Shown here piece by piece: positions 8,278-58,940 of a stretch of 59,840 nucleotides of DNA. The DNA comes from Planctomycetota bacterium (lineage in GTDB: Bacteria; Latescibacterota; UBA2968; UBA8231), in assembly GCA_047616505.1 (NCBI GenBank), contig JBLHGI010000002.1, positions 1 through 59,840 on the forward strand, in the 5' to 3' direction. The first letter of the stretch is position 1; every line of letters begins with the position of its first letter. The notes below the pieces were generated by a model. That model saw only the letters and a list, made by a program, of their open reading frames with translations, was not told the origin of the DNA and made no database searches. A program made the position numbers and the translations under genes.

Positions 8278-10686
8278 TTATTCGCTTTTTTTGACGGCGA
8301 ACGTAGCCAGTGCCGCAAACCACGCATCCCGCTCTTCGGATGAAGCCCAAAAATAGAATTTGCCGACGGCCCGTTCGACCGCCATTAGATCCACTAGGAA
8401 GTCATAGGCCGAATTCGACGCGCCTTCTTCGGCCAGTGTCGCCGCATTCTGCGCATCTAGGAGACCCAGTATATTCACTGCGCCGCGCCCGTAGGCATCT
8501 TTGACCAACTCGTAGTTCTTATTAGCCGCCACCGCTGCTGCTGCCGCTAGACTAATACCCGCATAGGAGGCACCCGCCATATGCAGCGACGAGCGGATGC
8601 GCTGCTCGACGCGCTCGGCCAGTGCCTGCCGCTGCAGACGCAATTGCTCTAACTCGGCCTGTGTCTGTTGCCTCAGCGCAGATTTTCCGCCACCGGAGTA
8701 GAGTGGAAAACTCAGGTTCAGCGCCACGTCCCAATGCGTATCGTCGCCACTGACGGGAAAGGGCAGCTCTCCCGGCGCCGGCGTTCCCGCCCCCTCACCC
8801 CCTTCGTACAGGGTATGGTGCAACTGGCCGCTCAGCGCTGCCGTCGGTGCCCACAGCGCCCGCGATGCCGCTTTTAGCGCCCGTTCGCGCGCGGCAATTG
8901 CCACGTCTAAACGCTGTAGTTCCGGCGCCGAGCTCAGCGCATCTTCGACCATATAGGCACGCAGTGTTCTAAAATTTTTCGGGCTCGCCATATAGTGCAT
9001 AAAGCGCGCGTCGTGCGCCACGAGTGCCTCGTCGTGTAAACCCGTCTCCTGCACGGAAAATGCTTCTTCCAATGGACGCTGCAAAAAGCGATTGAGCGCG
9101 ATCTCTGCTACGTTGCGCTGTGCATTGGCGTCGATGACAGAGCGGCGACTACTGGCAATCTGACTTTCCCAACGGTAGACCTCTGCTGGACCGGAGGCAC
9201 CGGTGAGTTTACGCATCCGCGCCAGTTCTAAATTGGAGCGCGTCAATTCGAGATTGTGCGCCTGCACCCGTTCTAACGTTTGCGCGCGCAGCACATTCAA
9301 ATAAGACGTGGCCGCAGCTAGAGCAATATCGAGCCGCAATTCGCGCAATTGCAGACGGCGCTCTTTTTTTAGATAGCGCTGTATATCGCGGTTGGCACGA
9401 GCCCCCTCGGCATAGAGCAGCTGCGTCAAAGTAGCGTTAGTTGTCAAGCTTTGCTCTGCCTGGCTCAAGAAACCGGCACGCGACTCGTCTATCACCACTC
9501 CCGTAGCCGCCAACTCTACCTGGGGCAGCAGATCCGCCGTCGCCTGTCGCACCCCATGCGCAGCCACCGTTATATCGCCAGCGCCTGCCAACAGATCTAA
9601 ATTGGCGCGCATAGCCTCCTGTACCGCCCCGACCAAGGTCAAGCGGCGCACATTTTGCGTGGACTCGCCCCCTACTAACTTGGCTTCTGTCAGTATGCCC
9701 CAACTCGGATCGGCCCCAACGGCCCGCACCGTGGCCATATTGAGCGTTAGCTGTTGGCGACGAGAAAATACCACCGGCAACTCTTCGGGTTTCTCGCCCA
9801 GCAGTATGCGCTGCACGCTCAGCGCCGTGCGCCGCACTAAACGCTCGACATCGGCCCCCGAATGCACTCCCATCATAAATCCCTGAGCTACCTGGTCCGT
9901 ACTCAACGCTGAAAAAGAAGGTATCCGGCGCTGGGCCAATGCCTGCGCTAGACCCTTTTCGCCTGCCAATGGCAAATACAAAGGCAGCGCGATAAAAACG
10001 CCGTCGACATCCGCAGGCAATCCCTCCATCAATGCGTCCACATCCCCCTCTACAGGCAAGGGCACAGCCTCGATACCCACCTGAGCAGCTTCGTCTATAT
10101 GATGTTGTACGAGCTCCGGTATGGCGCGACCAATCGCACCGGCATAGAGCATAGCCACACGCTTTATGGGCACGACCTCGGCAAAGACTTCTAAATCGTT
10201 CTGGATATCGGAGGGGAAAACCACATAGCTCAGATTCGCCACGCCGCTAAACTGCCCGTGCAGCGGAATTCCCTGCACAGAAGCATTGATAACGACCGGC
10301 GCCAATACAGGTTTTGGCAAAGAGCTACGGCGCCCCGCTTCGTGCGATGCCAACACGCCCCCAGCAACCACCATATCAACTTCTGGGTCAGCTAGTAGGC
10401 GATCGAGTGCGCGCGCAACGCCTGTAGCACTCGCATCGGCAACGAGCGCTTTGTCGGCGGGAAAGCGCACGTCGAATTCACCGCGAGTCAATTCGACGAC
10501 CTCGCGCTCAAAGAGCGCGCGCACTTGTTGGTGATCCATACTCCAAGGTCCGTCAATCACGATGCCGATGCGCACGGGAGCGCCTTGGGCAAAGGCCCAC
10601 GTCTGGCTGCACAATAAGATGCATAGTACCTGCGTGCACCTGCGCACTAGCAATACAAGGCTCATAAAATTCTCGCTAATTTGCAC
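8278..10686 (-). CDS. TolC-family outer-membrane efflux protein with an N-terminal ~330-aa periplasmic-binding-protein-like (ABC_sub_bind-like) domain
   Basis: 802 aa with a signal peptide. The N-terminal half is alternating beta/alpha, PBP type-I-like (VRIGIVIDGP.., VDMVVAGGV.., RVAMLYAG.., VDGVFIALP..). The C-terminal ~450 aa is a typical TolC double repeat (LTLVGAVQEAMRANLDLL.., LLPQVELAATG.., WDVALNLSFPLYSGG). Confidence 0.8.
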   Translation of the reverse strand: MQISENFMSLVLLVRRCTQVLCILLCSQTWAFAQGAPVRIGIVIDGPWSMDHQQVRALFEREVVELTRGEFDVRFPADKALVADASATGVARALDRLLADPEVDMVVAGGVLASHEAGRRSSLPKPVLAPVVINASVQGIPLHGQFSGVANLSYVVFPSDIQNDLEVFAEVVPIKRVAMLYAGAIGRAIPELVQHHIDEAAQVGIEAVPLPVEGDVDALMEGLPADVDGVFIALPLYLPLAGEKGLAQALAQRRIPSFSALSTDQVAQGFMMGVHSGADVERLVRRTALSVQRILLGEKPEELPVVFSRRQQLTLNMATVRAVGADPSWGILTEAKLVGGESTQNVRRLTLVGAVQEAMRANLDLLAGAGDITVAAHGVRQATADLLPQVELAATGVVIDESRAGFLSQAEQSLTTNATLTQLLYAEGARANRDIQRYLKKERRLQLRELRLDIALAAATSYLNVLRAQTLERVQAHNLELTRSNLELARMRKLTGASGPAEVYRWESQIASSRRSVIDANAQRNVAEIALNRFLQRPLEEAFSVQETGLHDEALVAHDARFMHYMASPKNFRTLRAYMVEDALSSAPELQRLDVAIAARERALKAASRALWAPTAALSGQLHHTLYEGGEGAGTPAPGELPFPVSGDDTHWDVALNLSFPLYSGGGKSALRQQTQAELEQLRLQRQALAERVEQRIRSSLHMAGASYAGISLAAAAAVAANKNYELVKDAYGRGAVNILGLLDAQNAATLAEEGASNSAYDFLVDLMAVERAVGKFYFWASSEERDAWFAALATFAVKKSE

Positions 10687-25598: not shown

Positions 25599-27779
25599 TC
25601 ACTTAATCAGTTCCAACGCCTTTGCCGCTTCCTCATCAGCCAACTCTTCAATAAGCGTCGCCGCACGCTCGACAATAGGCCCACTACCCGGCCCCTCATC
25701 ATCAATCGTTTTGAGCAGGCCCGGCGTATACCACACCTGGGAGCCCTGCGTCCTGCGTTGACCAATGGCGTATTTTCCCATCCAGCGCACATAGCCGAGC
25801 AGCTCTTCGTAGTTTTCGGCGCAGTCCATGCGCACCAGCGCCATCGCCAGCGGCCCCAGCTGTTCTAAATCGGTGGGATAGCGCCGCTTGATCTCCTCAA
25901 ATTCCTTCATCGCCTTGCGCAGCGGTGTCAGACTGCCCGAGGTACAGGCGTGTGGTTTTTCCGGCAATGCCTCTAAGATCTCGCCCACCCGCGGCACCAA
26001 CACCGCAATTAAGTCGGCATCGATTAGCTCCTGCCCCGGCAACGAGCTCACGTCCTCACCGCGCGCTGTCCGCGCCGCCAATAGTGCCTTTTGTGCCGCT
26101 ACGATCACGCCCTGCTGTTCGGCGGCGAGCGGGTTGAGTCCTTCCTCGCTGAGTTCGGCATCTTCGACCAAAAACTCTTCGATAATGCGCTCGGCGCGCG
26201 CGCCACGCGAGACCAGTGCATTGACCATGCCCTGGTACTCAGGCGATACGTCCAGACACAGCGCCGCGCGCACCACGGCTTTCTCCAACTCGCCCATTAT
26301 TTCTCCAGCTATTCCCTCGCTAGCTACATCCCAGGCACTCTCATCCCGTTCTAAATTTTCCAAGAGCTCATTGATCTCCACGCGCTCGACGTGACGGTCG
26401 AGCAGGCGCCCCGCCTCGCCCGCCAAAACCGTCTCCACCTGCGCAAAGAGTTCACCGACGGTTTCTATCGCATTGATGACGTCCATCCGCCGCATATCGC
26501 CCGCACTCGCCTTGGCCGAAACCAAACCAATCAGCACGATGCGCACCCAATCGAGATCTTCCAACTCCAGCTTGCGACGCTTGGTCCGCACATCGACACA
26601 GAGCTGCACGACCGCTTTACAGCGCATAAACTCGGCACCGCGCTCTATAAACAAATAGAGGTTCTTGCGCCGCGACGTCATTTGCCCCAACACGGCGCGC
26701 GCACGCTCCACCAGTAGGGCTTTATAGTACCCGCTGACAAAAATATCGGCGACAAACTCTTCTATCAATCCTTCTATTCCCTGTGGGCCAAAACGAGCGG
26801 CCCAATGACACAGGGCATCGGTCGGCGACTCGGGCAACAGGTCAAAGCGCAGCGCATCGCGATAATCGTGACACGCCTCGTTCATATTCTGCGGCGCCGT
26901 TTCCATGCCGTAGGCCTCAGCCATTTCGTAGGCCGCCGGATGCACGATATCGCGGTCGAGCACCGAGCTACTAGGATAGTTCTGTTCTTCGGCAATCTGC
27001 ACGACCTTCGCCTCACCCCACAGCTCCTCCTGATACGTATTGTAGAGCGCCTTGACAATGGCATCGGGCTCGCTATCGCGAAAGCGCTGCTGCAACTTAA
27101 CGCCCAAACGCCCGTCGCCATCGGCGCGAATCGTATCGAGCAGGCGCTTCTCGTATTCGTAGAGAAACTCGTCCAACTCACTGATCGGCACGTCGATGCC
27201 GCTGTTCTCTTTTTTCTTGATTCGATCGGGGCTCTCGTAGGTGCTGCGATGTTTGTTGCGGTGGCGCACCATGCGGCGCACGGCATTATAGCCGGGCACC
27301 GAGACGTGGCGCTTGAGCATGAGCCGCTTGGCCAGGATTACCAGTTCGTAGAGCAGGATAAAGTCGAGTAACTGCGAGCCATCGCGCACCAAGATCTGCG
27401 CGATAGACCAATAGTCGTAGCCGTTGCGAAAAGCGACATCGAGGATTTTTTCCGGCAGGTAAATCGTGCGGCGGGTGCGGCCAATGTGGATGGCCTGGTG
27501 GTTGCGCACGTCTTTAAAGCAACACAGACCGCGACCAGCCACCAACGTCACGCTGATATTGCGCGCCAACAGCGCATCTAAAAAGTACTCCGGCAGCTGG
27601 CGCACGGCACTGTAGAAGAACTTGACTTGGTCGTGGCCAATATGAAAGCGCGGCAACTTCTCCTCGCCTTCGAGCAGCAGACCATCGCGCACGCGCGTCT
27701 GCCGCCCAAAGACAATCGTCTTCTCCGCCTCTTTCAGCGCCTCGTTGACCTCCGCATGGCTTATATCACCTTCGTGCAC
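25599..27779 (-). CDS. Hypothetical 726-aa soluble protein, last gene of the fliN-fliN-fliG-fliM operon
   Basis: Long uninterrupted ORF. GTG start with AAGGAG 5 nt upstream, and that RBS overlaps the fliM stop (cgcTAAGGAGcgcccGTG). No TM segment, no Walker A and no motif I can recognise. Helix-rich, with an acidic C-terminal half. Confidence 0.8.
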   Translation of the reverse strand: MHEGDISHAEVNEALKEAEKTIVFGRQTRVRDGLLLEGEEKLPRFHIGHDQVKFFYSAVRQLPEYFLDALLARNISVTLVAGRGLCCFKDVRNHQAIHIGRTRRTIYLPEKILDVAFRNGYDYWSIAQILVRDGSQLLDFILLYELVILAKRLMLKRHVSVPGYNAVRRMVRHRNKHRSTYESPDRIKKKENSGIDVPISELDEFLYEYEKRLLDTIRADGDGRLGVKLQQRFRDSEPDAIVKALYNTYQEELWGEAKVVQIAEEQNYPSSSVLDRDIVHPAAYEMAEAYGMETAPQNMNEACHDYRDALRFDLLPESPTDALCHWAARFGPQGIEGLIEEFVADIFVSGYYKALLVERARAVLGQMTSRRKNLYLFIERGAEFMRCKAVVQLCVDVRTKRRKLELEDLDWVRIVLIGLVSAKASAGDMRRMDVINAIETVGELFAQVETVLAGEAGRLLDRHVERVEINELLENLERDESAWDVASEGIAGEIMGELEKAVVRAALCLDVSPEYQGMVNALVSRGARAERIIEEFLVEDAELSEEGLNPLAAEQQGVIVAAQKALLAARTARGEDVSSLPGQELIDADLIAVLVPRVGEILEALPEKPHACTSGSLTPLRKAMKEFEEIKRRYPTDLEQLGPLAMALVRMDCAENYEELLGYVRWMGKYAIGQRRTQGSQVWYTPGLLKTIDDEGPGSGPIVERAATLIEELADEEAAKALELIK

Positions 27780-27788
27780 GGGCGCTCC

Positions 27789-29060
27789 TTAGCGAAAGCC
27801 GTCTTCGCGCTCTGCTGGTAGGGCCCCGGCCACTTTCACCGCATTCAGCCCATGCGCACTGGCGCAGGGCCAACCGAGAAATTTCGCATCGCCGCCGACA
27901 AAGACCGGCACCGGCTCGTCCGTCTTGCGATCCAAACCGACCACATCGCCGACCTTGAGCGCACGCGCCTGTGCCAAACTCAGCTCGCTGCGGCCCAACT
28001 CGGCACACACATCGAGGGCCATTCCGCCCAGACGCAGACGGTTGTCGCGCACGAGCGTATTCTGATTTCCCTGACGCATTTTCACATAGTTCTGCTGCCC
28101 CAAACGCGGCAAGATCGACTCCAGCGTAAAAAACGGATAACACAAGCTGATCAGCCCCGAGGCATTGGTCGAATTGACTTCAAAAGCCAGCAGAATAACG
28201 ATCTCACTGGCCGCCGTAATCTGCATAAACTCCGGATTCGTCTCCAGCTCGATATCGTGAATATTGACCGGAAGAATTGGCTCCCACGTCGCCTCCAAAT
28301 CCTCGATCATTTTCTTGACGACCGTGTTTATTTCGCCAATCTCAATCGGCGTCAGCTGCCGCGCATCGACGCCCTGCGAAGAGCCTTTGCCACCAAAGGC
28401 GCGGTCGACTTGGGCAAACACAACCGGCATGGCAATATCCAGTATCGCCTGTCCGTTGGTCGGCCCGAGCGTAAACTGATACGAGCAGGAAGGGTTCGAC
28501 AAGCTCATAATAAACTCGGCGTAGGTCGTCTGATCGACAAAGGCCGTATCCACATCGACAACCGCACGCATCGCCCCCGACAAAGTAGATGAAAGCAGGC
28601 GCGCAAAATTGTCGTGCAAGTTCTCTAAAGTGCGCAGCTGCTCTTTGTTGACACGCGCGGGGTGTTTAAAATCGTACGACGTGATGATGCGCTGTCCACT
28701 AGCTTTTTGGTGCCCTTTTTTCGCCTTTTCCTCAGCCTCGCGCTTCTGGTTTCCCTCACGCACGCGCCTCATCTCGGCCACTAATTCGACGACTTCTGGA
28801 TAGAGCGCGTCGATTTGTTTCTTGGTGAATTTCTTCTTGGCCGTGCGCGCCCTTTCGACCAGCACTTCCACTAGCTGATCATCGATATCGGCCTCTGGCA
28901 TATCGCTATGTAACACACCCACGACCTGCGTCGTTAACAAGCTGAGATCCTTCTCCTCCAAAGCCAGGCGCTCCACCAACCATTTATTTAGCATCGGGTA
29001 AACAGGCGTACTCACTTCCAATAACTCGTCGATCTCAGTCTGCGACAGTATATCTGGCAT
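27789..29060 (-). CDS. fliM: Flagellar motor switch protein FliM homologue (with extended N-terminal linker)
   Basis: N-terminal MPDILSQTEIDELL matches the E. coli CheY-P-binding peptide MGDSILSQAEIDALL. FliM middle-domain boxes: SYDFKHPARVNKEQLRTLENLHDNFARLL, VDRAFGGKG, LTPIEIGE, LETNPEFMQI. C-terminal SpoA/FliN-type domain: LDVCAELGRSELSLAQARALKVGDVVGLD. Confidence 0.9.
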   Translation of the reverse strand: MPDILSQTEIDELLEVSTPVYPMLNKWLVERLALEEKDLSLLTTQVVGVLHSDMPEADIDDQLVEVLVERARTAKKKFTKKQIDALYPEVVELVAEMRRVREGNQKREAEEKAKKGHQKASGQRIITSYDFKHPARVNKEQLRTLENLHDNFARLLSSTLSGAMRAVVDVDTAFVDQTTYAEFIMSLSNPSCSYQFTLGPTNGQAILDIAMPVVFAQVDRAFGGKGSSQGVDARQLTPIEIGEINTVVKKMIEDLEATWEPILPVNIHDIELETNPEFMQITAASEIVILLAFEVNSTNASGLISLCYPFFTLESILPRLGQQNYVKMRQGNQNTLVRDNRLRLGGMALDVCAELGRSELSLAQARALKVGDVVGLDRKTDEPVPVFVGGDAKFLGWPCASAHGLNAVKVAGALPAEREDGFR

Positions 29061-29072
29061 TTTCAGTTCTCC

Positions 29073-30305
29073 TTAACAAAACTGGTCGTCGGTTTCGCCG
29101 CGCACGATGGTAATCTCGCCTTTTTCCTCTAGCTGGCGCACCTGTTGCACGATGCGCAGCTGCACTTCTTCCACCTCGCTCAAACGCATCGGCCCCAAGA
29201 ACTCCATCTCTTCGGTAATAGCAGTGCGCACTTTCTCCGACATATTGCCGAGCACCTTATCCTTGAGCTCTTCGCGAGCTGCTTTCAGCGCCACGACGAG
29301 ATCCTTCTGGTCGACTTCGCGCATCACGATCTGAATCTCTCGATCCGTGAGCTTGGCGATATCGTGAAAAGTAAACATCAGATTGCGCACGCCCTCGGCC
29401 ACTTGTGGATCTTGCGTATCTATTTGATCCAGCACATTCTTTTCGACCGATGAGCCCGTCATATTCAGCATATCGGCCACGACCTTCGGCCCACCGACAT
29501 CCTGCAACTGGCTGCGCATTTCGCCAAACATAGAGCGCAACGCCCTTTCGGCCCGCTCCACCGTCGCCCGCGTCACATCTTCCATTGTGGCCATGCGGTA
29601 GGCCACATCCGCCTGTAGACGCTCGGGGAAATTATTGAGTATACCACCCGACGAGCCCGCAGGTATCTGCGATAGAATAAAGGCGATCGTCTGCGGATGC
29701 TCGTGGCTGATAAAGGGCGACACCTGATCGGGCCCCGTCTTTTCCAACAATTCCCACGGCGACTCGTCGGCCACCTGCGCTTCGTCCAGTATGCGGCTGG
29801 CCCACCACGGTGCTACTGCTCCGCTCATGAGAGCACGAGCAAGCTTCTCGCCACCCAAATCGAGATATTCGCCGTCTTCAACGCGTTGGCGCACCGTCTC
29901 CAGCGCGTGCATACCCGCGTTGTGTTTGACCGCTTCACAGGCCGCCACCGCTCGCCCCACCTGCGCCGCTTCGTCCTGCTCCAATTGGCGCAACACGCGC
30001 ACACCGACCTCTTGGCCCAGCGCGATAAAAAACGCGGCCACTACTTGTTCCGCACTCATGCCAGCCAACGGTCCTTCGCCACCAGCGCCACCCCGCAACA
30101 AACTGCGCACGACGGCGGCCGCCTCTTGCGCGTGCTGCCAGATATAGGCATGCGTACTATGGGCGGCCATACCTGCGGGCAGGTCTGGAGTCTCGTCGGC
30201 ACGGGTCGCGACGGACCATCCGCGCTGCCCAGCATCCTGCAACGGTTCTACTTCGCCCAACTCTTCTTCCGTCGGCAAGTGGTATACTTTCGCATTTTCA
30301 CTCAT
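29073..30305 (-). CDS. fliG: Flagellar motor switch/rotor protein FliG homologue (with ~80-aa N-terminal extension)
   Basis: Motifs EHPQTIAFILSQ, MFTFHDIAKLTDREIQIVMREVD, LVVALKAAREELKDKVLGNMSEKVRTAITEEMEFLGPMRLSEVEE and LEEKGEI are collinear with E. coli FliG. ATGA overlap with the upstream fliN-like gene. Confidence 0.92.
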   Translation of the reverse strand: MSENAKVYHLPTEEELGEVEPLQDAGQRGWSVATRADETPDLPAGMAAHSTHAYIWQHAQEAAAVVRSLLRGGAGGEGPLAGMSAEQVVAAFFIALGQEVGVRVLRQLEQDEAAQVGRAVAACEAVKHNAGMHALETVRQRVEDGEYLDLGGEKLARALMSGAVAPWWASRILDEAQVADESPWELLEKTGPDQVSPFISHEHPQTIAFILSQIPAGSSGGILNNFPERLQADVAYRMATMEDVTRATVERAERALRSMFGEMRSQLQDVGGPKVVADMLNMTGSSVEKNVLDQIDTQDPQVAEGVRNLMFTFHDIAKLTDREIQIVMREVDQKDLVVALKAAREELKDKVLGNMSEKVRTAITEEMEFLGPMRLSEVEEVQLRIVQQVRQLEEKGEITIVRGETDDQFC

Positions 30306-30571
30306 GAGTCCACCTCTTCTACTTCTACTAAACTCGTGACGCGCACCGCCATCTTATCGGTTACGACCACCACTTCGCCATGGGCAAAATGGTGGCCGTT
30401 GAGCCGAATTTCAAAGGCCTCACCCGCCAGTTTATCAAACTCGATTACGTCCTGCTCTTTTAGTTGATTTACTTCGCGCAGCGATATCTGCTTGCGCCCC
30501 AACTCGCAGCTGACCTGTAAGCGCGCGCTGCCCAAATGCGCCAAGCGCTCTCTTTCTTCATTAGTAGCCAT
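30302..30571 (-). CDS. fliN: FliN-like (SpoA / FliMN_C domain) protein, 89 aa
   Basis: SpoA-domain pattern LQVSCELGRKQISLREVNQLKEQDVIEFDKLAGEAFEIRLNGHHFAHGEVVVVTDKMAVRVTSL. There is a 1-nt gap to the upstream gene. Confidence 0.8.
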   Translation of the reverse strand: MATNEERERLAHLGSARLQVSCELGRKQISLREVNQLKEQDVIEFDKLAGEAFEIRLNGHHFAHGEVVVVTDKMAVRVTSLVEVEEVDS

Positions 30572-30572
30572 T

Positions 30573-30908
30573 TCAGACCTCGCCGACTATTTCCGTTATG
30601 CGCACGCCAAAATTCTCGGACACCGTCACCACCTCACCCCGCGCATAGAGCTTGCCATTGAGCTTTATGTCGACTGGATCGCCGACGCGTTTGTCCAACT
30701 CGATCAACGATTGCTCCCCTATCTTCAACGCATCGTCTAGCGTCTTCGAGGCACGCCCAAGTTCCGCACTCAAAGTCAAAGGCATATCATCGAGACATAC
30801 TCCACCAGCCGCCTTGGCAGCCGCTGGAACAACCGCTGCTTTTTTGGCAGGAGCCTTCTTCGCCGCATTTTTGGCTATCGTCTTTTTTACGACCGCTTTT
30901 GCCGCCAT
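30573..30908 (-). CDS. fliN: FliN-like (SpoA / FliMN_C domain) protein, 111 aa, with N-terminal Lys/Ala-rich tail
   Basis: SpoA pattern LTLSAELGRASKTLDDALKIGEQSLIELDKRVGDPVDIKLNGKLYARGEVVTVSENFGVRITEI, preceded by MAAKAVVKKTIAKNAAKKAPAKKAAVVPAAAKAAGG. RBS AAGGAG lies 8 nt upstream of the ATG. Confidence 0.8.
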   Translation of the reverse strand: MAAKAVVKKTIAKNAAKKAPAKKAAVVPAAAKAAGGVCLDDMPLTLSAELGRASKTLDDALKIGEQSLIELDKRVGDPVDIKLNGKLYARGEVVTVSENFGVRITEIVGEV

Positions 30909-31236
30909 GATCCGGTCTCCTTTTCAGAGTTTAATGCTACATAGCCCCTGTCGCTTTTACGACCAGCACCACGCCGATATAAATCCAACTTCCATTTATA
31001 CATCTATCTTATGTATCAGGCCGATTACCCCTTTTAGAGCGAGCTTAAAAAAAAGTAACCCTCAATCACCTCATATCCTTACGAATACACCAAAAAGGGA
31101 CGGGAGTCAAGAAAAAGCCCGCGTGAATCCTTTTAAGCAAAATACACATCCAACACTTCGGACGCACCAATCCAGTTTCATTCACCAAATAACACAGCAG
31201 ACTTACACCAGCGGCTCTATTTTTATTGCACAGCTA

Positions 31237-31266
31237 TTGACAAAACCACTCCATTGATTATATCAT
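31237..31266 (+). promoter_or_regulatory. Sigma70-type promoter candidate for the XRE-trxA unit (TTGACA-N18-TATCAT)
   Basis: Read directly: TTGACA at 31237-31242 and TATCAT at 31261-31266, about 40 nt upstream of the ATG at 31308. Confidence 0.45.
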
Positions 31267-31268
31267 TA

Positions 31269-31288
31269 TTGATATTAAAATATATCAA
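31269..31288. promoter_or_regulatory. Perfect inverted repeat TTGATAT-N6-ATATCAA (operator-like) just downstream of the -10 element
   Basis: Read directly. Additional TGAT(A/T)T half-sites occur at about 31254 and 31293. A plausible operator for the adjacent XRE-family regulator. Confidence 0.4.
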
Positions 31289-31307
31289 CTGTGATATAAG
31301 GATTTTT

Positions 31308-31541
31308 ATGCCTTTCGACTGTCAGTCCATCAAAAAATTCCGCCGGCATATGCGTCTAACTCAAGCGGAGTTGGCAGAGAGATTGGGCGTACCGCAACCC
31401 ACAGTCGCGCGTTGGGAATCGGCGCGCGCAGCGCCCTGCGCGCGCCATATCGGCATGCTCTGCGATATGGGACGCACCCAGGGTATCAATCCGAGCTTTT
31501 TCTTTCCGAACTTCAGTCACTACGAGCCCCAGGCTCATTAA
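31308..31541 (+). CDS. XRE-family helix-turn-helix transcriptional regulator (77 aa)
   Basis: HTH_3 signature RRHMRLTQAELAERLGVPQPTVARWESAR. The internal ATG at 31308 is preferred over the 31254 start because the upstream codons sit in AT-rich promoter sequence. Confidence 0.75.
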   Translation: MPFDCQSIKKFRRHMRLTQAELAERLGVPQPTVARWESARAAPCARHIGMLCDMGRTQGINPSFFFPNFSHYEPQAH

Positions 31542-31556
31542 TTAAAGGAGAACACA

Positions 31557-31880
31557 ATGGCTGATCTCGCCTCTTTTACCGATGCTAACTTTCAGACAGA
31601 AGTACTCGATTCCGACATACCCGTCGTCGTCGACGTCTTCGCCACGTGGTGCGGTCCGTGCAAAATGATCGCCCCCATCATCGAGGAATTGGCCAGCGAC
31701 TACGCAGGTCGTATCAAAGTCGGCAAACTCGACGCCGACACCGAGCAGAAAACGGCGGCAGAATTTCAGGTCCGCGGTCTGCCAACCGTGCTAATCTTCA
31801 AAGACGGTAAAGTAGCCGACTCGGTCGTCGGTGCCGCCGCTAAAGCGCAGTATATAGAAAAATTAGAAGCCGTGCTTTAA
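31557..31880 (+). CDS. trxA: Thioredoxin
   Basis: 107 aa with active site WCGPCK and the conserved GLPTVLIFKDGK. RBS AAAGGAG lies 7 nt upstream. Confidence 0.95.
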   Translation: MADLASFTDANFQTEVLDSDIPVVVDVFATWCGPCKMIAPIIEELASDYAGRIKVGKLDADTEQKTAAEFQVRGLPTVLIFKDGKVADSVVGAAAKAQYIEKLEAVL

Positions 31881-35096: not shown

Positions 35097-35172
35097 GGCC
35101 CGTTCGTCTAGAGGCCTAGGACGCTGGCCTCTCACGCCGGTAACGCGGGTTCGAATCCCGCACGGGCTACCA
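35097..35172 (+). tRNA. tRNA-Glu (anticodon CUC), CCA encoded
   Basis: GGCCCGTTCGTCTAGAGGCCTAGGACGCTGGCCTCTCACGCCGGTAACGCGGGTTCGAATCCCGCACGGGCTACCA. Cloverleaf folded by hand: 7-bp acceptor stem (G1-U72 wobble), anticodon stem CTGGC/GCCGG, loop CU-CUC-AC, T-arm GGGTTCGAATCCC. Close to E. coli tRNA-Glu. Confidence 0.9.
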
Positions 35173-50983: not shown

Positions 50984-51490
50984 CTACTTTTCCCATTCCG
51001 CTATAGCCTGCTCTCGCAGTATCTGCATCTGCTGCGAACCGATCTCGTCGAAGCGATATATTTCACCGCCGTGCTCACGGGCAAAAACCTCGGCCTTTTT
51101 GCGTGCGGAAAACGGGGCCAAAGTCGGCCCCATGGCCCCCATCTTGGCACTGCCGACGACAAAGAACAGCACCTCTGCCCTAACCCAACCGTCGGCGTGG
51201 GCTTCCCACCTCGCATCGTCGAGTGCCTGGAACCATATACCCGCGACTTGGCGCCGCCGCACGGGATCGAGTAATTCACCAAAAATCTCTTTGCTGTCGC
51301 AGAAAAAGGCGCGCTCACCATTCTTGCGCAGCAGCTGCGCCTTGGGCCCTTCGTGATAGGCCAACAACATGCCGTCGAGCGCACAGGCCTCTGCCGCAGC
51401 GATGGGGGCCGATTCGATCTGCTGCACCTCCTTTGCTCCGCAGGCCATCAAGAGCACACAGGTTAGCAGCGACCATCTCCCACGCTTCAT
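50984..51490 (-). CDS. nosL: NosL copper-chaperone lipoprotein
   Basis: 168 aa with lipobox LLMACG. Last gene of the nos operon, with an ATGA overlap with nosY. The size and motifs (CALDGMLL.., FFCDSKE) fit the NosL family. Confidence 0.75.
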   Translation of the reverse strand: MKRGRWSLLTCVLLMACGAKEVQQIESAPIAAAEACALDGMLLAYHEGPKAQLLRKNGERAFFCDSKEIFGELLDPVRRRQVAGIWFQALDDARWEAHADGWVRAEVLFFVVGSAKMGAMGPTLAPFSARKKAEVFAREHGGEIYRFDEIGSQQMQILREQAIAEWEK

Positions 51491-52317
51491 CCACGATCTC
51501 TTTTCAGTGCCACCGGCCGATAGATCCGCGTCAGCTTATAGCCCGTGACCAGCAGTGGACCGACGATCCATACGGCGAGCATGGCGCTAGCCGCCGCGAA
51601 ACCGACGCCGCGCGCATAGAGCAGTGATTCGACTTGTTCGGGGAAAAAGTGTAGATAGCTAAGCAGGCGATAGCTGCCCAGCGGGTTGACGATGATCAGC
51701 GCATTAACTAACTCATCGGGCACATCGCCCTGCGTTGCAGCCAAGATGCCAACGACCAGAAAGTCGAGTAAAACCGCCAGCAATAGCCACGTCCCTATAC
51801 ACATCGACACGACGGTGCTGCGATTGAGACTCGCACTCGATACGAGCAATCCCACCGAGACGACGGCGCTCCCCAAAAGGGCACTATGCGACAACAGGAC
51901 GATAAATTCTCCAGCACTACCGCCAACGGCGACAAAGGCCATAGCCTGTAGAGCCAGACTCGGCACCAGCGCCACCGTCAAGCTAGCAAAGAGCCCAATC
52001 CACTTGCCAATTAGAAAACTCCACCACGGTACCCCCAGGGCCAAATGCACGTCGAACATGCCGCTTTCGCGCTCGGCCAACACCGCGTCATAGGCGATCA
52101 ACAAACCCAACAGCGGCACGATATAGAGCTGCAGGTGCACCAGCGACACCAGCACCGTATCCTGCCCGATCTGCCCCGATGCAAAAGAAAACCCGTACGA
52201 ACCCACCGCCCATGACAGAAGCGCACAGACGAGCCCCATAATTACTATCCACCAGCTCTTGAGATTGGCGATCAGCTCTTTATAGGCGACATAAACCGTC
52301 GTTACCCAGTGCGTCAT
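51487..52317 (-). CDS. nosY: NosY ABC-2-type permease
   Basis: 276-aa six-helix membrane protein. ATGA overlaps on both sides, with nosF and nosL. Confidence 0.85.
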   Translation of the reverse strand: MTHWVTTVYVAYKELIANLKSWWIVIMGLVCALLSWAVGSYGFSFASGQIGQDTVLVSLVHLQLYIVPLLGLLIAYDAVLAERESGMFDVHLALGVPWWSFLIGKWIGLFASLTVALVPSLALQAMAFVAVGGSAGEFIVLLSHSALLGSAVVSVGLLVSSASLNRSTVVSMCIGTWLLLAVLLDFLVVGILAATQGDVPDELVNALIIVNPLGSYRLLSYLHFFPEQVESLLYARGVGFAAASAMLAVWIVGPLLVTGYKLTRIYRPVALKRDRG

Positions 52318-53249
52318 GCGTTCTCTCCCGGGCTTTGAGCGCGAACGCCAACCTTGCCATTGGCCGAGAATCCAGATGGATCAGCGCTCATATGTAGATA
52401 GAGGTCGTCTAGGCTAGCATGATGCACCTCTATATCGCCGACTTCGATAGACGGCTCTGAGACGAGCTGCAACAAATGGCCCACTTGTTCGCGTTCTAAG
52501 ATAATATCCAATCCACCATCACTTTCTTGCACTTGCCAAGAGCGCGCCCGCGCGCTATCGCCTAACGCTGCTGCTCCGATGACCTGCCGCAAAATTACGC
52601 GACTCATCAGACCAGCGGCATGCATCAACTCAGCGCAGGGACCACTGGATGCAATCTTGCCCTGACGCAAAAAGGCCGCGTGCGTTATACGCCCTTCTAT
52701 TTCGGCCAGCAAATGCGAAGAGAGCACAATGGCCGCACCGGATTGCGCGCGCTCTTGTAATATCTCGTAGAATTTGCTGATACCGCGCGGATCGAGCCCA
52801 TTCGTCGGCTCGTCGAGCACCAATAGGTCGGGGTCGCCAATAATCGCCTGCGCCAGTCCCAGCTTCTGTTTCATGCCCTTCGAATAGGCGCCGACCTTCT
52901 TGTCGCGCGCTGCTTCCAGCCCAACTCGCTCTAAAGTCTCGGCCTGCCTCTCTTCGCTAGCGCCGCTATAGCGCGCAAAATAGCCCAGGACCTGTGCGCC
53001 GCTCAAATAGGGATACCACTGACAGTTTTCAGGCATATAACCGACGTGCGGCCGGCCATCGCGCGCGAGTAGTTGTCCATTATTAGGCCGCAAAATACCA
53101 GCGAGAATTTTGAGCAGCGTGCTCTTGCCCGAGCCATTTTCGCCTATCAGCCCGAGGATGCTGCCGCGCTCTACCGACAGACTCACGCCGCGCAGCACTT
53201 CTTCGCGCCCATAGCGCATGTACACCCCATCTAAACAACACAATTCCAT
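52314..53249 (-). CDS. nosF: NosF ABC ATPase
   Basis: Walker A GENGSGKST, signature YSKGMKQK, Walker B LLVLDEPTNGLD. Positioned between nosD and nosY. Confidence 0.9.
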   Translation of the reverse strand: MELCCLDGVYMRYGREEVLRGVSLSVERGSILGLIGENGSGKSTLLKILAGILRPNNGQLLARDGRPHVGYMPENCQWYPYLSGAQVLGYFARYSGASEERQAETLERVGLEAARDKKVGAYSKGMKQKLGLAQAIIGDPDLLVLDEPTNGLDPRGISKFYEILQERAQSGAAIVLSSHLLAEIEGRITHAAFLRQGKIASSGPCAELMHAAGLMSRVILRQVIGAAALGDSARARSWQVQESDGGLDIILEREQVGHLLQLVSEPSIEVGDIEVHHASLDDLYLHMSADPSGFSANGKVGVRAQSPGENA

Positions 53250-53251
53250 AC

Positions 53252-54469
53252 TCAGCGCCTCATCGCTAGCGGATTTACCATCAGCGGCCGCTCCTCTAAA
53301 ACGCCGGGGGGACGCATCACCGGAAACTGGGCCTCTAACCCCTGTAAGAGCAGCATCGCCGGCGAGTGCAGAACCAAACGCACAGCGGGAAAACGCCCCA
53401 CGAGATAGGCGGCAATATCACTCGGGTAGTGCCGCTTGTCGCCCACGCCATCGCCGTTGCGGTCCCAACCAACGTAGTCGCTCCAATAATTCCCGCTCCA
53501 AACCAGCGACGTATGATTCTGATAGTTTAGCTGCTGGCGATTATCGACAAAGGCATTACCCGCTACCAAGTTTTCGGGAGAATCCGAGACCAGTATGCCA
53601 ATTTCGTTAGCCGCGACGAGGTTGCCCCGCAGTGTATCAAAGCTGCAGCCGCTGAAGAAAAAACCGTCCTGACTGCTCTGCGTATCGTTGGCTTCAATTC
53701 GGCTATTGTAGAGGTTGCGCAGGAGAATGCCGTGCGTGTGGCTGGCGCGCACTTCGTTTTCGAGAACTTGTATGCCCTTCGAATACATCAGTGCAATACC
53801 GACCGACGAGCTATCCGTATAGTTGCCGACGACTCTGTTGTGATGCGAGTACATATAGTGGATGGCAAAGCGCGTGCGGTGAATGCGGTTGCGCGCGATC
53901 AGGCAGCCCGTCGAATTGGAAATGTAGACACCGTCGCGCCCTTTCTCTATATAATTATCGAGCACCGCGCCGTTTTTTACGTTGAAGAGATGGATGCCGT
54001 TGCCCAGATCGGATATAATGGCCTCGTCGTCGCGCCCCTCGACGCGGCAGCCTGCGATATGGGGCTCGTCTGCCGCATCGACCCAGATGCCAAAACCGCT
54101 TCGGTCTATTTGCACGCCGATAATGCGCGCGCCATCGGCCTCGCGATCGACCCAAATACCACTATGCTTGCCGCTCACGTCTGTGCCGCTGCCCGTCACG
54201 CGCAGATTCTCCACCGAGATCGCAGCGGCCATCAGCGCCAGCGTATGCCCCGAACCACCGCCGTCGACAACCGTTCCGACCCCTTGCCCGCGGATCGTCA
54301 GCGCCTTGTCGACGCGTGCACTGCCATAGTGCCCAATGCTCAAATCTAACGTATCACCAACGGCCGCCGCATCGACGAGTGCCTGTAGGTCTAGCGGCGC
54401 ACTAAGCGCGACACTAACACTTACGAGCACACAGAACAGGCTAAGAAGCAACGCGGTCGCCTTCTTCAT
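53252..54469 (-). CDS. nosD: NosD periplasmic parallel-beta-helix copper-maturation protein
   Basis: Signal peptide and repeated right-handed beta-helix units (GIWVD.., NGIHLF.., FAIHYMYS.., HGILLRN..). Operon position after nosR. Confidence 0.9.
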   Translation of the reverse strand: MKKATALLLSLFCVLVSVSVALSAPLDLQALVDAAAVGDTLDLSIGHYGSARVDKALTIRGQGVGTVVDGGGSGHTLALMAAAISVENLRVTGSGTDVSGKHSGIWVDREADGARIIGVQIDRSGFGIWVDAADEPHIAGCRVEGRDDEAIISDLGNGIHLFNVKNGAVLDNYIEKGRDGVYISNSTGCLIARNRIHRTRFAIHYMYSHHNRVVGNYTDSSSVGIALMYSKGIQVLENEVRASHTHGILLRNLYNSRIEANDTQSSQDGFFFSGCSFDTLRGNLVAANEIGILVSDSPENLVAGNAFVDNRQQLNYQNHTSLVWSGNYWSDYVGWDRNGDGVGDKRHYPSDIAAYLVGRFPAVRLVLHSPAMLLLQGLEAQFPVMRPPGVLEERPLMVNPLAMRR

Positions 54470-56510
54470 ATTTCTCCCAGATCTCGATCTTTAACAACGG
54501 CGGACAGACCTCTTCATCGCTCATCGTATTCGTGCACTCCAAACAGCCGAAACAGGTCTTGGGATCGATCTCACCCTGCGCATTAATGGCTCGCGTCGAA
54601 CAACCCTTGGCGCAAATATTACAGGTAGTGCAGAAGTTTCGCCGCGGCAGTCTGAATATTTGAAAACGAGACAGAATAGCCAAATAAGCACCCAGCGGAC
54701 ACAGATAACGACAGAAGAAACGCACCGTAACGGCACCCATAATAAATAGCCATGACCAATAGAGCACCAGATACCAGGGCCTATTCGTCACGCCCACTAA
54801 CCAGGTCGTCTTAAAAGGTTCTATCTCGGCTAACATCTCAGCCAAGTTGAGCGAAAAAAGCGACACGGTCAAAAGCGAGACGAATATAAAGTAAGGGAGA
54901 TACTTCAAACGGTCGTGCCAACTAGCGGGCATCTCATATAACTTGTGCCATTTTTTTGGCACGAGTTTGTTGCGCACAAAATGCGTCAACTCCAACATGC
55001 CACCGTAGGGGCATATCCAGCCGCAGAAAGGACCGCGCCCCCATAACAACGTGCCCACCGTAATCATAAGCCAAGAGACAAAGAGAAATGGTTCCGTCAG
55101 AAAGAGCCCCAAACCGCTGCCCGAGCGCAGCACATCGACAAAGGTGAAAATATTGACAACAGACGGCTGCCCCTTCTGCCCAATGCCGAGCAGTAGAATC
55201 GAACAAGCGATAATAGCTAGGTGGAAATACTCGAGGAATTTGCGATTTTTCGAGATGCGCTCGCGCAGCGCAAAGGAGAGCAAAACAATCGCCCACAGCG
55301 CGATATAGAGACCGATCCACACCTTTTTCCCAGACCAAATGCGCGCCGCCATAGAGGGGCTAGTCAATTCGCCAAAGGCAGCGGGTGGAGCGATGACGTA
55401 TTCTGCGGGCATTTCGTAGGGCACCTTGAAGTGCATAAATTTTTTTGATTTAGACGTCTCGTGACTGCGCTCCGTCACCAGCACTTCCAACTCCCAGGGC
55501 AGCGCGCCATTAAAAGCGTCATTGGGCACGATATAAATTGCTTTTTCACCTATATGCGGCGCATCTTCTAAAACGATGCGAAACTGGTAGTGATAGTCGC
55601 TGTCGCGAAAGCGAATAATCTCCAAGCCCTGCGTCAGCTGCAAACGATCAAAAATGCCGCCGCGCACAAAGCCCGAACCGCGAAAAGAGAAACTGCCATT
55701 ATTGAGTATCACCAACAGCGCCTTGCCCGGATGCGATGCCATCAGCGCTTGGTACGCCTCTTCGCCCAATAGGTTCGCACCCAGCGAGGGCTGGTTGAGA
55801 ATGCCGACATAGAGGTCCAGCCAATCGTCTTCATTCGCATACTCCTGGCCGCGCACCTCGGCGGCGCTCAGCGACACGTGCTCTAAGAGCCCCTTGCCCA
55901 TTAATTGCTGCCAGCCCAACATCTCCATCTGCTCGCTAATACGCGCTTTAGTCTTTCCCCCGACGGCTAGCAGCCCAATTTCCTGTGCCACGATCTTTGC
56001 CGCCGTAAATACAACTTGATCAGCCACCAATGCCGTCACGGTTGCCCCCGATACACCATCGAGCAAAATCTTCGACTCGCCGGCTATATTTTCCAAGAGC
56101 AGATCTTCTATATGCCGCCCTTCGAATTGGTCGATATAATCGTGTAAGACTTTCTCGGGGATTCCGACTAACAAGATGGGCTCGTGATGATCCATGAGGT
56201 CGGCGCGTTCAATGGTGCCAGTAGCGGAGAGAGCTACTAAAATCTCCAGTGGTTTGCCCGAATAGGCCACCATGTCCACGAACTCATGCGTGAGAAAAAC
56301 AAAACCAACTCGCTCCCCGTCCACGCGCGCTTCCATCACTGGCTTACCGGCCATTTCTATAGCCTGCCATTGCGCTCCGGCAAAGACGTCGGGAACATGC
56401 TCTTGCGGCAGACAAATAGGACGACCATCGCGCAGTTCAAGATGGGATACCGCTTCAACAGGAAGGGCAGTCGCTAGCAGTCCCAGCAGGCACGCAAGGG
56501 CAATAGACAT
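54441..56510 (-). CDS. nosR: NosR membrane flavo-iron-sulfur protein
   Basis: Periplasmic FMN-binding domain with flavinylation motif LLDGVSGATVTA, a polytopic region with CGWICPYG and CRYLCPLG motifs, and C-terminal ferredoxin motifs CTTCNICAKGC and CFGCLEC..CPP. Confidence 0.9.
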   Translation of the reverse strand: MSIALACLLGLLATALPVEAVSHLELRDGRPICLPQEHVPDVFAGAQWQAIEMAGKPVMEARVDGERVGFVFLTHEFVDMVAYSGKPLEILVALSATGTIERADLMDHHEPILLVGIPEKVLHDYIDQFEGRHIEDLLLENIAGESKILLDGVSGATVTALVADQVVFTAAKIVAQEIGLLAVGGKTKARISEQMEMLGWQQLMGKGLLEHVSLSAAEVRGQEYANEDDWLDLYVGILNQPSLGANLLGEEAYQALMASHPGKALLVILNNGSFSFRGSGFVRGGIFDRLQLTQGLEIIRFRDSDYHYQFRIVLEDAPHIGEKAIYIVPNDAFNGALPWELEVLVTERSHETSKSKKFMHFKVPYEMPAEYVIAPPAAFGELTSPSMAARIWSGKKVWIGLYIALWAIVLLSFALRERISKNRKFLEYFHLAIIACSILLLGIGQKGQPSVVNIFTFVDVLRSGSGLGLFLTEPFLFVSWLMITVGTLLWGRGPFCGWICPYGGMLELTHFVRNKLVPKKWHKLYEMPASWHDRLKYLPYFIFVSLLTVSLFSLNLAEMLAEIEPFKTTWLVGVTNRPWYLVLYWSWLFIMGAVTVRFFCRYLCPLGAYLAILSRFQIFRLPRRNFCTTCNICAKGCSTRAINAQGEIDPKTCFGCLECTNTMSDEEVCPPLLKIEIWEKYEEGDRVAS

Positions 56511-56609
56511 AACGCAATAACTCTTTCTTAGAATGGGGACAGAATAAACATAAGCACAGCAGCGCCGCGCGCGGCAACCAAGACCGCACGCGACGTGCTA
56601 TATAGCAAC

Positions 56610-58472: not shown

Positions 58473-58520
58473 CGATCCCTCCTATGTACTATGCGCATAG
58501 CTTATGAGGTGATACATGTA

Positions 58521-58556
58521 ATTTTATAAAAAGACTATTTTATCTTTTTATAAAAT
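58521..58556. promoter_or_regulatory. Perfect 14-bp inverted repeat (ATTTTATAAAAAGA-N8-TCTTTTTATAAAAT) in the nosZ / cytochrome c divergent control region
   Basis: Read directly. It lies 49-84 nt upstream of the nosZ ATG. Confidence 0.5.
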
Positions 58557-58581
58557 CCTATACACTGCGATGGAACTAGTT

Positions 58582-58595
58582 TTGCTATTTCTCAA
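58582..58595. promoter_or_regulatory. Weak FNR/DNR-type box candidate TTGCT-N4-CTCAA
   Basis: Matches 8 of 10 positions of the TTGAT-N4-ATCAA consensus, keeping the TTG-N8-CAA core. Centred about 116 nt upstream of the nosZ ATG. Confidence 0.3.
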
Positions 58596-58940
58596 GCAAT
58601 GGCAAAACTCGTGCCTTGACGAAAGCTCTGCGGCTTTAAAAGAATCGATACGAGGGTAGTAATGAGGTTTTTATTGAAGGAAGTGGTTGGAAATGCGTAG
58701 TTTCGCGGTGAATACCGTCGATATCTTTTGTATTTTATGCCATGAGATCCACCCCAACAGCAGCAGGAGATAGCAAGCCGATCACGGCTATAGGCAAAAT
58801 AATATTCAACCTGAGGCACATAAGTCTCTTCGCTTTACCAATAAGCGAGACACCATTAGCTCTATTAAAAAGATAAAACATGATTTCTATCCATCACTCT
58901 CTTGAAAAAGAGTCCCATTCCCCCCAAGAAACGAGGCTTT

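Follow-up and report, generated by a model that had tools for sequence, protein, structure and literature searches.

A stand-alone fliN-fliN-fliG-fliM operon whose FliG carries a FliF-tail-like segment: a recurrent switch-complex locus type in bacteria labelled Latescibacterota or Gemmatimonadota

The flagellar switch complex, or C-ring, is usually regarded as something that belongs to the motor by necessity, anchored to the MS ring through the C-terminal tail of FliF and FliG's N-terminal domain (FliG_N), two elements that co-fold at the docking interface in solved structures. We describe here a block of five minus-strand genes at positions 25599-30908 of a 59,840-nucleotide (59.8-kb) stretch of DNA, contig JBLHGI010000002.1 of assembly GCA_047616505.1 (deposited as a Planctomycetota bacterium, Latescibacterota in GTDB), which we call the window and to which every statement on the host genome is limited. 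The block comprises fliN1, fliN2, fliG and fliM, followed by the gene of a 726-amino-acid (aa) orphan protein, P726. Its first four genes belong to a locus type that we call T1, the stand-alone fliN-fliN-fliG-fliM block, as distinct from T2, in which fliM-fliN lie within a full flagellar operon. Our analysis shows that the T1 locus type recurs and is maintained by selection, that it is distinct from the T2 operon of the same phylum with its own fliM and fliN, and that its FliG, to judge from sequence, is a chimera in which a peptide resembling the FliF C-terminal tail directly precedes a FliG_N that has diverged together with it. The best explanation is that T1 represents a family, not described before, of stand-alone operons for the switch complex in bacteria labelled Latescibacterota or Gemmatimonadota; in the library that was searched, neither this operon type nor the natural fusions reported below are described.

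With the canonical C-ring of Escherichia coli and Salmonella, T1 has in common the three protein families with all their Pfam domains, as well as the EHPQ motif, GG linker and charged helix of FliG, the GGxG motif and LSQxEIDxLL-type peptide of FliM, and the SpoA domains of the FliM C-terminus and of FliN. It differs in forming a self-contained operon in the order N-N-G-M, away from fliF/H and fliL/OPQR, and in having two FliN paralogues; the window's copy differs further in its cis FliF-type tail, its diverged FliG_N, a duplicated FliM peptide and a basic FliN1 tail. Additional switch proteins are known from the FliG1/FliG2 pair of spirochaetes and the FliY/FliN/FliM expansion of Campylobacter. 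Like T1, these are extra paralogues outside the main operon (PMC7225975, PMC6946799), whereas T1 comprises a whole four-gene operon, a FliF-tail fusion and, in sister loci, fusions to kinase, PP2C, receiver and MotA domains, features that are absent from the papers retrieved. Functional FliF-FliG fusions made in the laboratory (full-frame in Salmonella, and in Vibrio; PMC6079021 and PMC10941966) have the same tail-then-FliG_N order as T1 FliG, which differs from them in containing only the last ~35 FliF residues, with no apparent transmembrane helix and no ring-building domain. A conceptual parallel is offered by Campylobacter jejuni, where the histidine kinase FlgS senses the FliF-FliG (MS ring-rotor) complex (PMC3760246): a kinase there reads a FliF-FliG assembly, and sister T1 loci fuse FliG_N-FliG_M to a histidine kinase, but FlgS is a separate protein in flagellar gene control and the window's operon is without a kinase. 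The injectisome sorting platform, with SctQ, is likewise a SpoA-domain cytoplasmic platform, and both window FliNs give weaker matches to the SctQ models (scores of 59.1 and 45.7, under the cut-off of 100.8). T1 differs from it by the presence of FliG and of the FliM middle domain and by scores that favour FliN; no SctN, SctV, SctL or SctK gene lies near the block, and no type III secretion gene was found in the window.

The five genes of the block, all on the minus strand, are closely packed. The first, fliN1 (30573..30908; 111 aa), encodes a SpoA/FliN domain preceded by a Lys/Ala/Pro-rich N-terminal tail (aa 1-36), and a 1-nucleotide gap (TGAaATG) separates it from fliN2 (30302..30571; 89 aa), a SpoA-only FliN paralogue confined to the T1 locus type. 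The next junction is an ATGA overlap (30302 against 30305) with fliG (29073..30305; 410 aa), which encodes an N-terminal extension followed by FliG_N, FliG_M and FliG_C. After a gap of 12 nucleotides, as given by the coordinates, comes fliM (27789..29060; 423 aa), whose product begins with a peptide region, continues with the FliM middle domain and ends in a SpoA domain, and after a further 9 nucleotides comes the P726 gene (25599..27779; GTG start), the sequence TAAGGAG at the fliM stop placing a GGAG directly after the stop codon. Open reading frame (ORF) coordinates and junction sequences thus agree with the packing, gaps and overlap given in a preliminary description of this DNA. The sole sizeable gap around the block is the intergenic region 5' of fliN1 (30909..31253), which borders a divergent XRE-HTH/thioredoxin gene pair and is presumed to hold the promoter; a simple scan upstream of fliN1 gave no convincing sigma-70 site on the gene strand, and the window contains no sigma-28 consensus. 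Measured against a relative ~90% identical in protein, all five genes are under purifying selection, with ratios of nonsynonymous to synonymous substitution (dN/dS) of 0.085-0.20, P726 standing at 0.085. The window FliG is identical to MGY8826655.1, which carries the NCBI label Candidatus Latescibacterota.

Profile searches place the four switch proteins in their families. FliN1 and FliN2 match Pfam FliMN_C at 77.2 and 75.8 bits (cut-off 23.8); FliN1 also passes the equivalog model TIGR02480 (85.2 against a cut-off of 84.05), and FliN2, at 71.8, falls under that equivalog cut-off yet lies far over the Pfam threshold. FliG matches FliG_N, FliG_M and FliG_C at 75.9, 89.8 and 142.4 bits and passes TIGR00207 (268.3 against 226.7), and FliM matches FliM (170.6 bits) and FliMN_C (47.3 bits) and passes TIGR01397 (231.3 against 219.6). 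The presence of all three C-ring families in the block (FliG, FliM and two FliN/SpoA proteins), which had been proposed from the letters alone, is confirmed by these Pfam matches. The accompanying claim, that the 59.8 kb hold no other flagellar, stator, export or chemotaxis gene, was also borne out: comparison of the larger window ORFs with Pfam gave no such family outside the block, and tblastn of the window with the full flagellar-operon protein set of the same phylum gave nothing beyond it.

FliG homologues at 50-90% identity are abundant in metagenome-assembled genomes (MAGs) labelled Latescibacterota or Gemmatimonadota. T1 was found at L003-L006 and L008 (L-numbers label the loci of relatives), and the fliN-fliN-fliG-fliM block lies amid metabolic genes on contigs of 231 kb (L004), 3.63 Mb (L005), 823 kb (L006) and 4.14 Mb (L008). 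A scan of Joint Genome Institute (JGI) metagenomes with the FliM alignment yielded 79 loci, which tblastn mapping divided into 33 of type T1, 32 of type T2 and 14 that were too short. Apart from a MotA::FliG_C fusion, no other flagellar structural gene was found in T1 flanks by tblastn with E. coli fliE-R proteins at all 79 loci, and a subset of T1 loci searched with the T2-operon proteins likewise gave none. All T1 loci for which the upstream flank is at hand have FliN2, which is without a T2 counterpart, and several T1 loci have two FliM or two FliG-like genes. Neighbour clustering of 26 T1 loci detected no universal partner past the four genes; amidohydrolase and PhyH genes recur as neighbours, which is a matter of lineage synteny. 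Of the five-gene arrangement singled out in the preliminary description, then, the four-gene block is conserved in other genomes, and the P726 gene is an inconstant partner.

The closest sequence relatives of the T1 proteins are the T2 operon and a plain FliG of the same group. T2 has the order fliF-fliH-fliI-fliJ-fliK-flgD-flgE-motA-motB-fliL-fliM-fliN-fliO-P-Q-R-flhB-flhA-flhF-flhG-fliA, ten of its ORFs being confirmed by Pfam and the others through tblastn matches to E. coli proteins or from their place in the operon. It has a single FliN and no space for fliG between fliF and fliH. The plain FliG, of 347 aa, is an orphan gene (L007, L010-L013), found by a scan of species-representative genomes with the FliG alignment that gave at least four close loci; these include the closed 6.7-Mb Latescibacterota chromosome (L011) and Gemmatimonadaceae MAGs (L012, L013). 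The window FliM core is 74-77% identical to T2 FliM, the FliN1 SpoA domain is 54-75% identical to that of the single T2 FliN, and T1 FliMs are 62-84% identical to operon-type FliMs. In T2, FliM and FliN are embedded in a full operon, FliF bears the tail itself, and the one FliN has a long acidic N-terminus, in contrast to the basic tail of FliN1. This FliN1 segment (aa 1-36; 30801-30908, minus strand) is histone-H1-like in its Lys/Ala/Pro richness, and its charge is inverted with respect to T2 FliN.

Alignment of the FliGs separates two clades: clade a, of ~410-440 aa with an N-terminal extension, which includes the window FliG, and clade b, the plain form. Identity between the two is 27.5% in FliG_N, 65.6% in FliG_M and 75.1% in FliG_C, whereas clade b is evenly conserved at 80-90%, has no tail and keeps a conserved FliG_N (80% within the clade). 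At the extreme N-terminus of clade-a FliG lies a motif (30240..30290, minus strand; aa 6-22, KVYHLPTEEELGEVEPL) that recurs at clade-a FliG starts (alignment A2) and in translated metagenomic FliGs. Farther along the extension, a FliF-tail profile search picks out a FliF-C-terminal-tail-like segment (30090..30194, minus strand; aa 38-72, ETPDLPAGMAAHSTHAYIWQHAQEAAAVVRSLLRG). The T2 FliF C-terminus reads …FERPETPHEMILGRVQQMVRERPEDAAKLIRTMLMEE, and the window FliG segment contains …STHAYIWQHAQEAAAVVRSLL…; the tail motif of T1 FliG (…PE.AA..VR..L) resembles the C-terminus of both T2 FliF and a solved M-ring protein. A profile built from T2 FliF tails only reached the window segment at iteration 3 (E 4e-6) and matched it at E 2e-20 on convergence; in the end it matched 88 FliGs that bear the tail, no decoy out of ~200 and neither P0165 nor P0185, the two clade-b FliGs checked. 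Intermediate T1 FliGs (L119, L130, L156, L154) have a near-identical FliF-tail peptide before FliG_N, at E-values of 1e-7 to 3e-15. Against PDB sequences, the fourth-best match of the tail profile was the C-terminus of a flagellar M-ring protein (12dr_A 550-565, AREKPEDVAKLIRTWL), with an E-value of 0.16 that is non-significant alone.

Canonical-looking tails go with a canonical-looking FliG_N (71-79% identical to clade b), and diverged tails with a diverged FliG_N (20-32%). Tail divergence tracks FliG_N divergence with a Spearman coefficient of 0.51, or a partial coefficient of 0.37 with FliG_M/FliG_C divergence controlled (p 5e-4), among sequences that are phylogenetically non-independent. 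The combination is rare, the tail plus FliG_N region matching 46 representative clusters among 1.84 billion. The window FliG has no Pfam match to the FliF ring-building domains YscJ_FliF or YscJ_FliF_C, and no hydrophobic segment is apparent by eye in its 82-aa extension or in the longer extensions of relatives. Because T1 FliG has no apparent transmembrane helix and no ring-building domain, it would have no MS ring attached to it. The known co-folding of FliF_C and FliG_N, together with the functional FliF-FliG fusions, suggests that the tail is bound to FliG_N in cis.

The remainder of the switch proteins gives a different picture: the parts of FliG predicted to bind FliM (EHPQ, GG linker) and to face the stator (charged helix), the FliM core and the SpoA domains are all highly conserved. 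FliG has the EHPQ motif at aa 202 (EHPQT plus the conserved Arg), a conserved GG linker and, at aa 355, the conserved charged helix MSEKVRTAITEEM. Of the E. coli ridge residues, K264, R281, D288 and D289 are represented by K, K, E and E, and R297 is replaced by Leu and so is not conserved. FliM has its GGxG motif as FGGKG at aa 222 and, at its N-terminus, the peptide MPDILSQTEIDELL; the CheY-binding-type peptide (29019..29051, minus strand; aa 4-14, ILSQTEIDELL) resembles the N-terminus M(A/G)DILSQ(E/D)EIDALL of the operon-type FliM of the same phylum. A second, internal CheY-binding-type motif (28794..28829, minus strand; aa 78-89, FTKKQIDALYPE) sits within an insertion of ~100 aa that is particular to the subclade of the window, and in the MAFFT alignment A4 it is with this second copy that LSQAEIDALL of E. 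coli and LSKDEVDAIL of L006 align. The two copies are separated by a ~60-aa segment conserved in the window's subclade only. Conservation of the FliM peptide and of the FliG charged ridge had been read from the sequence beforehand, and alignment supports it for both.

Sister T1 loci carry fusions to stator and signalling domains. Directly upstream of fliN1, single ORFs in L100 (1175-2587), L114 (1012-2352) and L111 (3307-4614) join a MotA-like four-helix membrane domain to FliG_C, as identified by Pfam in L100 and L114 and by a single ORF with tblastn matches in L111. No motB was seen directly upstream of this gene where examined (L100, L114), and the literature searched contains no description of a stator-rotor fusion of the MotA::FliG_C type. 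Pfam identifies receiver::FliM::SpoA proteins in L154 and L156 and, directly after fliM in L156 (10967-13909) and L101 (11139-14276), hybrid histidine kinases of the form FliG_N-FliG_M::HisKA-HATPase-receiver, with which an ORF of similar size and with a FliG-like tblastn match in L147 may be compared. Receiver::PP2C proteins occur in L101 and L156 (Pfam), and L095 and L147 have members of the same blastp cluster. Among the 46 representative clusters there are four fusions of FliG_N-FliG_M to a histidine kinase (with or without receiver) and one of a full FliG to PP2C (SpoIIE). FliG-fusion proteins with a kinase or PP2C part are P0400, P0406, P0407, P0412 and P0410. The position between the PhyH gene and fliN1, which in the window is taken by genes for an XRE-HTH protein and a thioredoxin (31254-31880, plus strand), holds a FliG_C-only or MotA::FliG_C gene in L095, L100, L111 and L114.

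P726 matches no Pfam or NCBIfam family, also when the search is rerun at E up to 10, and its sequence profile has no match in the PDB. Its homologues form 86 clusters, which come from MAGs labelled Latescibacterota or Gemmatimonadota and are without exception unnamed or 'hypothetical'. A conserved N-terminal alpha/beta and helical domain (aa ~1-345) is followed by a long helical-repeat region, and the AlphaFold2 models are confident (mean per-residue confidence, pLDDT, of 85 and 88). An HD-like motif (H280…H304-D305…D308) was considered and set aside as a guess without support. The P726 gene follows fliM in the window, in L090, in L099/L100 (45% identity) and in L145/L146 (48-56%); it is missing at L004, L005, L006 and L008 and stands alone at L001 and L002, and in further cases it shares a short contig with a clade-a FliG. 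Because this adjacency has been kept across ~45-50% identity, a functional link between P726 and the switch is suggested in some lineages, not an obligate one. The T1 context gives this family, with its confident, unmatched predicted fold, its first functional context.

The distribution of T1 relative to flagellar genes was approached through FlhA, for which a profile built from T2 loci matched ~97 clusters at an identity of at least 68%. Under Latescibacteria-type labels, FlhA falls into two groups, at 57-61% and at least 68% identity to the query. The 823,362-bp contig with the T1 locus L006 also carries 'fliP-fliQ-fliR-flhB-flhA-flhF-fliA (L169), where fliP is cut by an insertion sequence (IS) element/transposase, near the intact T1. 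The MAG GCA_043816545.1 has a clade-a FliG (MFH1570056) and an FlhA (MFH1570968), and among its contigs one holds motB-fliL-fliM-fliN-…-flhA, of type T2 (L170), and another fliN-fliN-fliG, of type T1 (L171). The accession numbers of two clade-a FliGs are 268 apart, which suggests that the two share one MAG. The 4.14- and 3.63-Mb T1 contigs are missing from the ~97 FlhA clusters, in a survey where ~2.6 co-locations were expected and one was seen; as a sign that they have no FlhA, this is suggestive only. On the closed 6.7-Mb chromosome OZ244235.1 (L172, 2023646-2045754), fragments of fliF, fliI, fliR and flhB (fliF', fliI', fliR', flhB') precede an intact flhA-flhF-flhG-fliA, and this gutted operon argues that flagellar decay is under way in the group. 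Latescibacteria single-cell genomes are reported to have a nearly complete flagellar set (PMC4454575).

These observations are best accommodated by supposing that T1 encodes a switch-type module independent of FliF, which serves as an auxiliary of the flagellum or survives it and is probably regulatory or signalling in nature, a proposal to which we give an even chance. The cis tail would probably fill the FliG_N groove in which the tail of FliF is normally co-folded; in that case T1 FliG need not, and probably cannot, dock canonically on the MS ring, and the T1 proteins would assemble as FliG-FliM-FliN1-FliN2 switch-type complexes independent of FliF. Since the CheY~P-binding-type peptide (twice) and the ridge have been kept, the window's complex could take phospho-receiver input and face a MotA-type partner. 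The fusion of sister loci to signalling and stator parts makes a C-ring-derived regulatory or signalling platform the most likely role. P726 may be a lineage-specific output or partner in the window's clade, which is the weakest step. Tentatively, and with rather less conviction, one may picture a C-ring-derived machine without MS ring, export gate or filament, in which a self-capped FliG, FliM and two FliNs would form a platform in the cytoplasm or near the membrane. A MotA-type unit, in some lineages fused to FliG_C, and phospho-receivers would act on this platform, which would signal via lineage-specific partners (a histidine kinase, PP2C or, here, P726) and be kept in lineages with a decaying or vanished flagellar operon. 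Such a machine would amount to a new class of bacterial signalling device, evolved from the flagellar switch. The preliminary description had hesitated between ordinary C-ring genes of a scattered flagellar regulon and a repurposed switch module working with P726. The module is closer to the evidence, given the separate and recurrent T1, the T2 operon with its own fliM-fliN, the orphan plain fliG and the FliF-type tail; what did not hold is P726 as a constant partner.

Several observations weigh against a FliF-independent module. The window itself is without signalling fusions, MotA::FliG_C or an operon kinase, and the genome from which its 59.8 kb derive may lack a second set of fliG, fliM and fliN. 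The cis binding of the tail to FliG_N is something that we infer from sequence resemblance. The MAG GCA_043816545.1 is the sole one with both a full T2 fliM-fliN and T1, and its T2 and T1 contigs have GC contents of 67% and 74%, a difference of 7 points that makes a binning error possible; on the 823-kb contig no fliM-fliN part of the operon was seen. For that same contig, regression of FliM on FlhA distance gives the T1 FliM ~4 points of extra divergence, about one residual standard deviation, which is roughly as compatible with a relocated orthologue as with a paralogue. In a neighbour-joining FliM tree, T2 is one short-branched clade and T1 is diverse, the root lying on a very long E. coli branch that makes the rooting unreliable. 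Finally, Foldseek comparison of P726 (full model and N-domain model) with the PDB gave no significant match, the best being anthrax lethal factor at E 0.18.

Part of this would be expected if T1 simply comprised ordinary C-ring genes after rearrangement, fliM and fliN having left the operon and joined fliG, fliN having been duplicated, the FliG tail being a by-product of a cut between fliG and fliF, and the whole being the sole switch genes of a flagellated cell. Flagellar genes are dispersed in this group anyway and fliG is never in the operon, all functional motifs have been kept, the FliM and FliG cores are very near the operon-type proteins, and on the 823-kb contig the divergence of T1 FliM exceeds only slightly what FlhA predicts. 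That contig carries flhA, flhB, fliQ, fliR, flhF and fliA, but its fliP is IS-truncated next to an intact T1, and none of the ~97 FlhA clusters comes from the largest T1 contigs (4.14 and 3.63 Mb). The nearly full flagellar set reported for single-cell genomes (PMC4454575) also speaks for a rearrangement. A MAG with T1, however, also holds an operon-type fliM-fliN, and T1 can be multi-copy, with extra FliM or FliG-like genes. Moreover, a tail-preloaded FliG_N that is 27% identical to the plain form is hard to square with docking on a conserved FliF tail, and T2 FliF keeps that tail. We regard rearranged ordinary genes, the main rival explanation, as possible, though doubtful.

A separate complex would be equally unnecessary if T1 encoded alternative motor subunits, condition-specific paralogues that are swapped into the canonical C-ring and retune switching, torque or stator recruitment, in the manner of the spirochaete FliG1/FliG2 pair or the enlarged Campylobacter C-ring. 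Identity to the operon-type proteins is 54-84% in FliG_M, FliG_C, the core of FliM and the SpoA domain of FliN1, which makes mixed assemblies plausible; the CheY-type peptide and the stator ridge have been kept, T1 and flagellar genes share at least one contig, and expanded C-ring sets exist elsewhere (PMC6946799, PMC7225975). We nevertheless think this unlikely, as a self-capped and diverged FliG_N speaks against insertion at FliF sites, the whole four-gene set and not one subunit is duplicated, the kinase, PP2C and receiver fusions in sister loci favour a signalling output over motor tuning, and an intact T1 accompanies a broken fliP. The second FlhA group, at 57-61% identity and partly labelled Latescibacteria, might bring to mind the C-ring of a second complete flagellar system with its other genes elsewhere, comparable to polar and lateral flagella. 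The T1 proteins, at 62-84% (FliM) and 66-75% (FliG_M and FliG_C) identity, resemble the operon-type proteins far more than one FlhA group resembles the other, even though no flagellar component is normally better conserved than FlhA, and no gene of a second system lies near any T1 locus examined; for the former reason we reject this explanation, which we consider highly improbable.

If T1 is indeed a FliF-independent module, a FliG with an absorbed FliF tail would mean that a switch complex can exist as a module of its own, an idea strengthened by the sister loci, in which stator, receiver, kinase and phosphatase domains are fused on. Such a module would offer a route to the study of C-ring assembly without a template ring and an instance of motor parts re-used for signalling, possibly during flagellum loss. 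T1 FliG would be a natural test case for the dependence of FliG_N folding on the FliF tail.

The other larger ORFs of the window encode efflux and ABC transport functions, amidohydrolases, the members of a nosZ cluster and the like. At 8278-10686 (minus strand), adjoining HlyD- and AcrB-type genes, lies an unusual fusion gene for an 802-aa protein with both an ABC-type substrate-binding domain and a domain of the outer-membrane efflux (OEP) family. Positions 51487-59792 are occupied by a nitrous-oxide reductase cluster of the nosZ type, with a 620-aa nos_propeller and cupredoxin protein, a 4Fe-4S protein of 689 aa, NosD, an ABC ATPase and an ABC-2 permease, followed on the opposite strand by a di-haem cytochrome c gene. 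The sole tRNA gene of the window is a tRNA-Glu(CTC), at 35097-35172 (plus strand).

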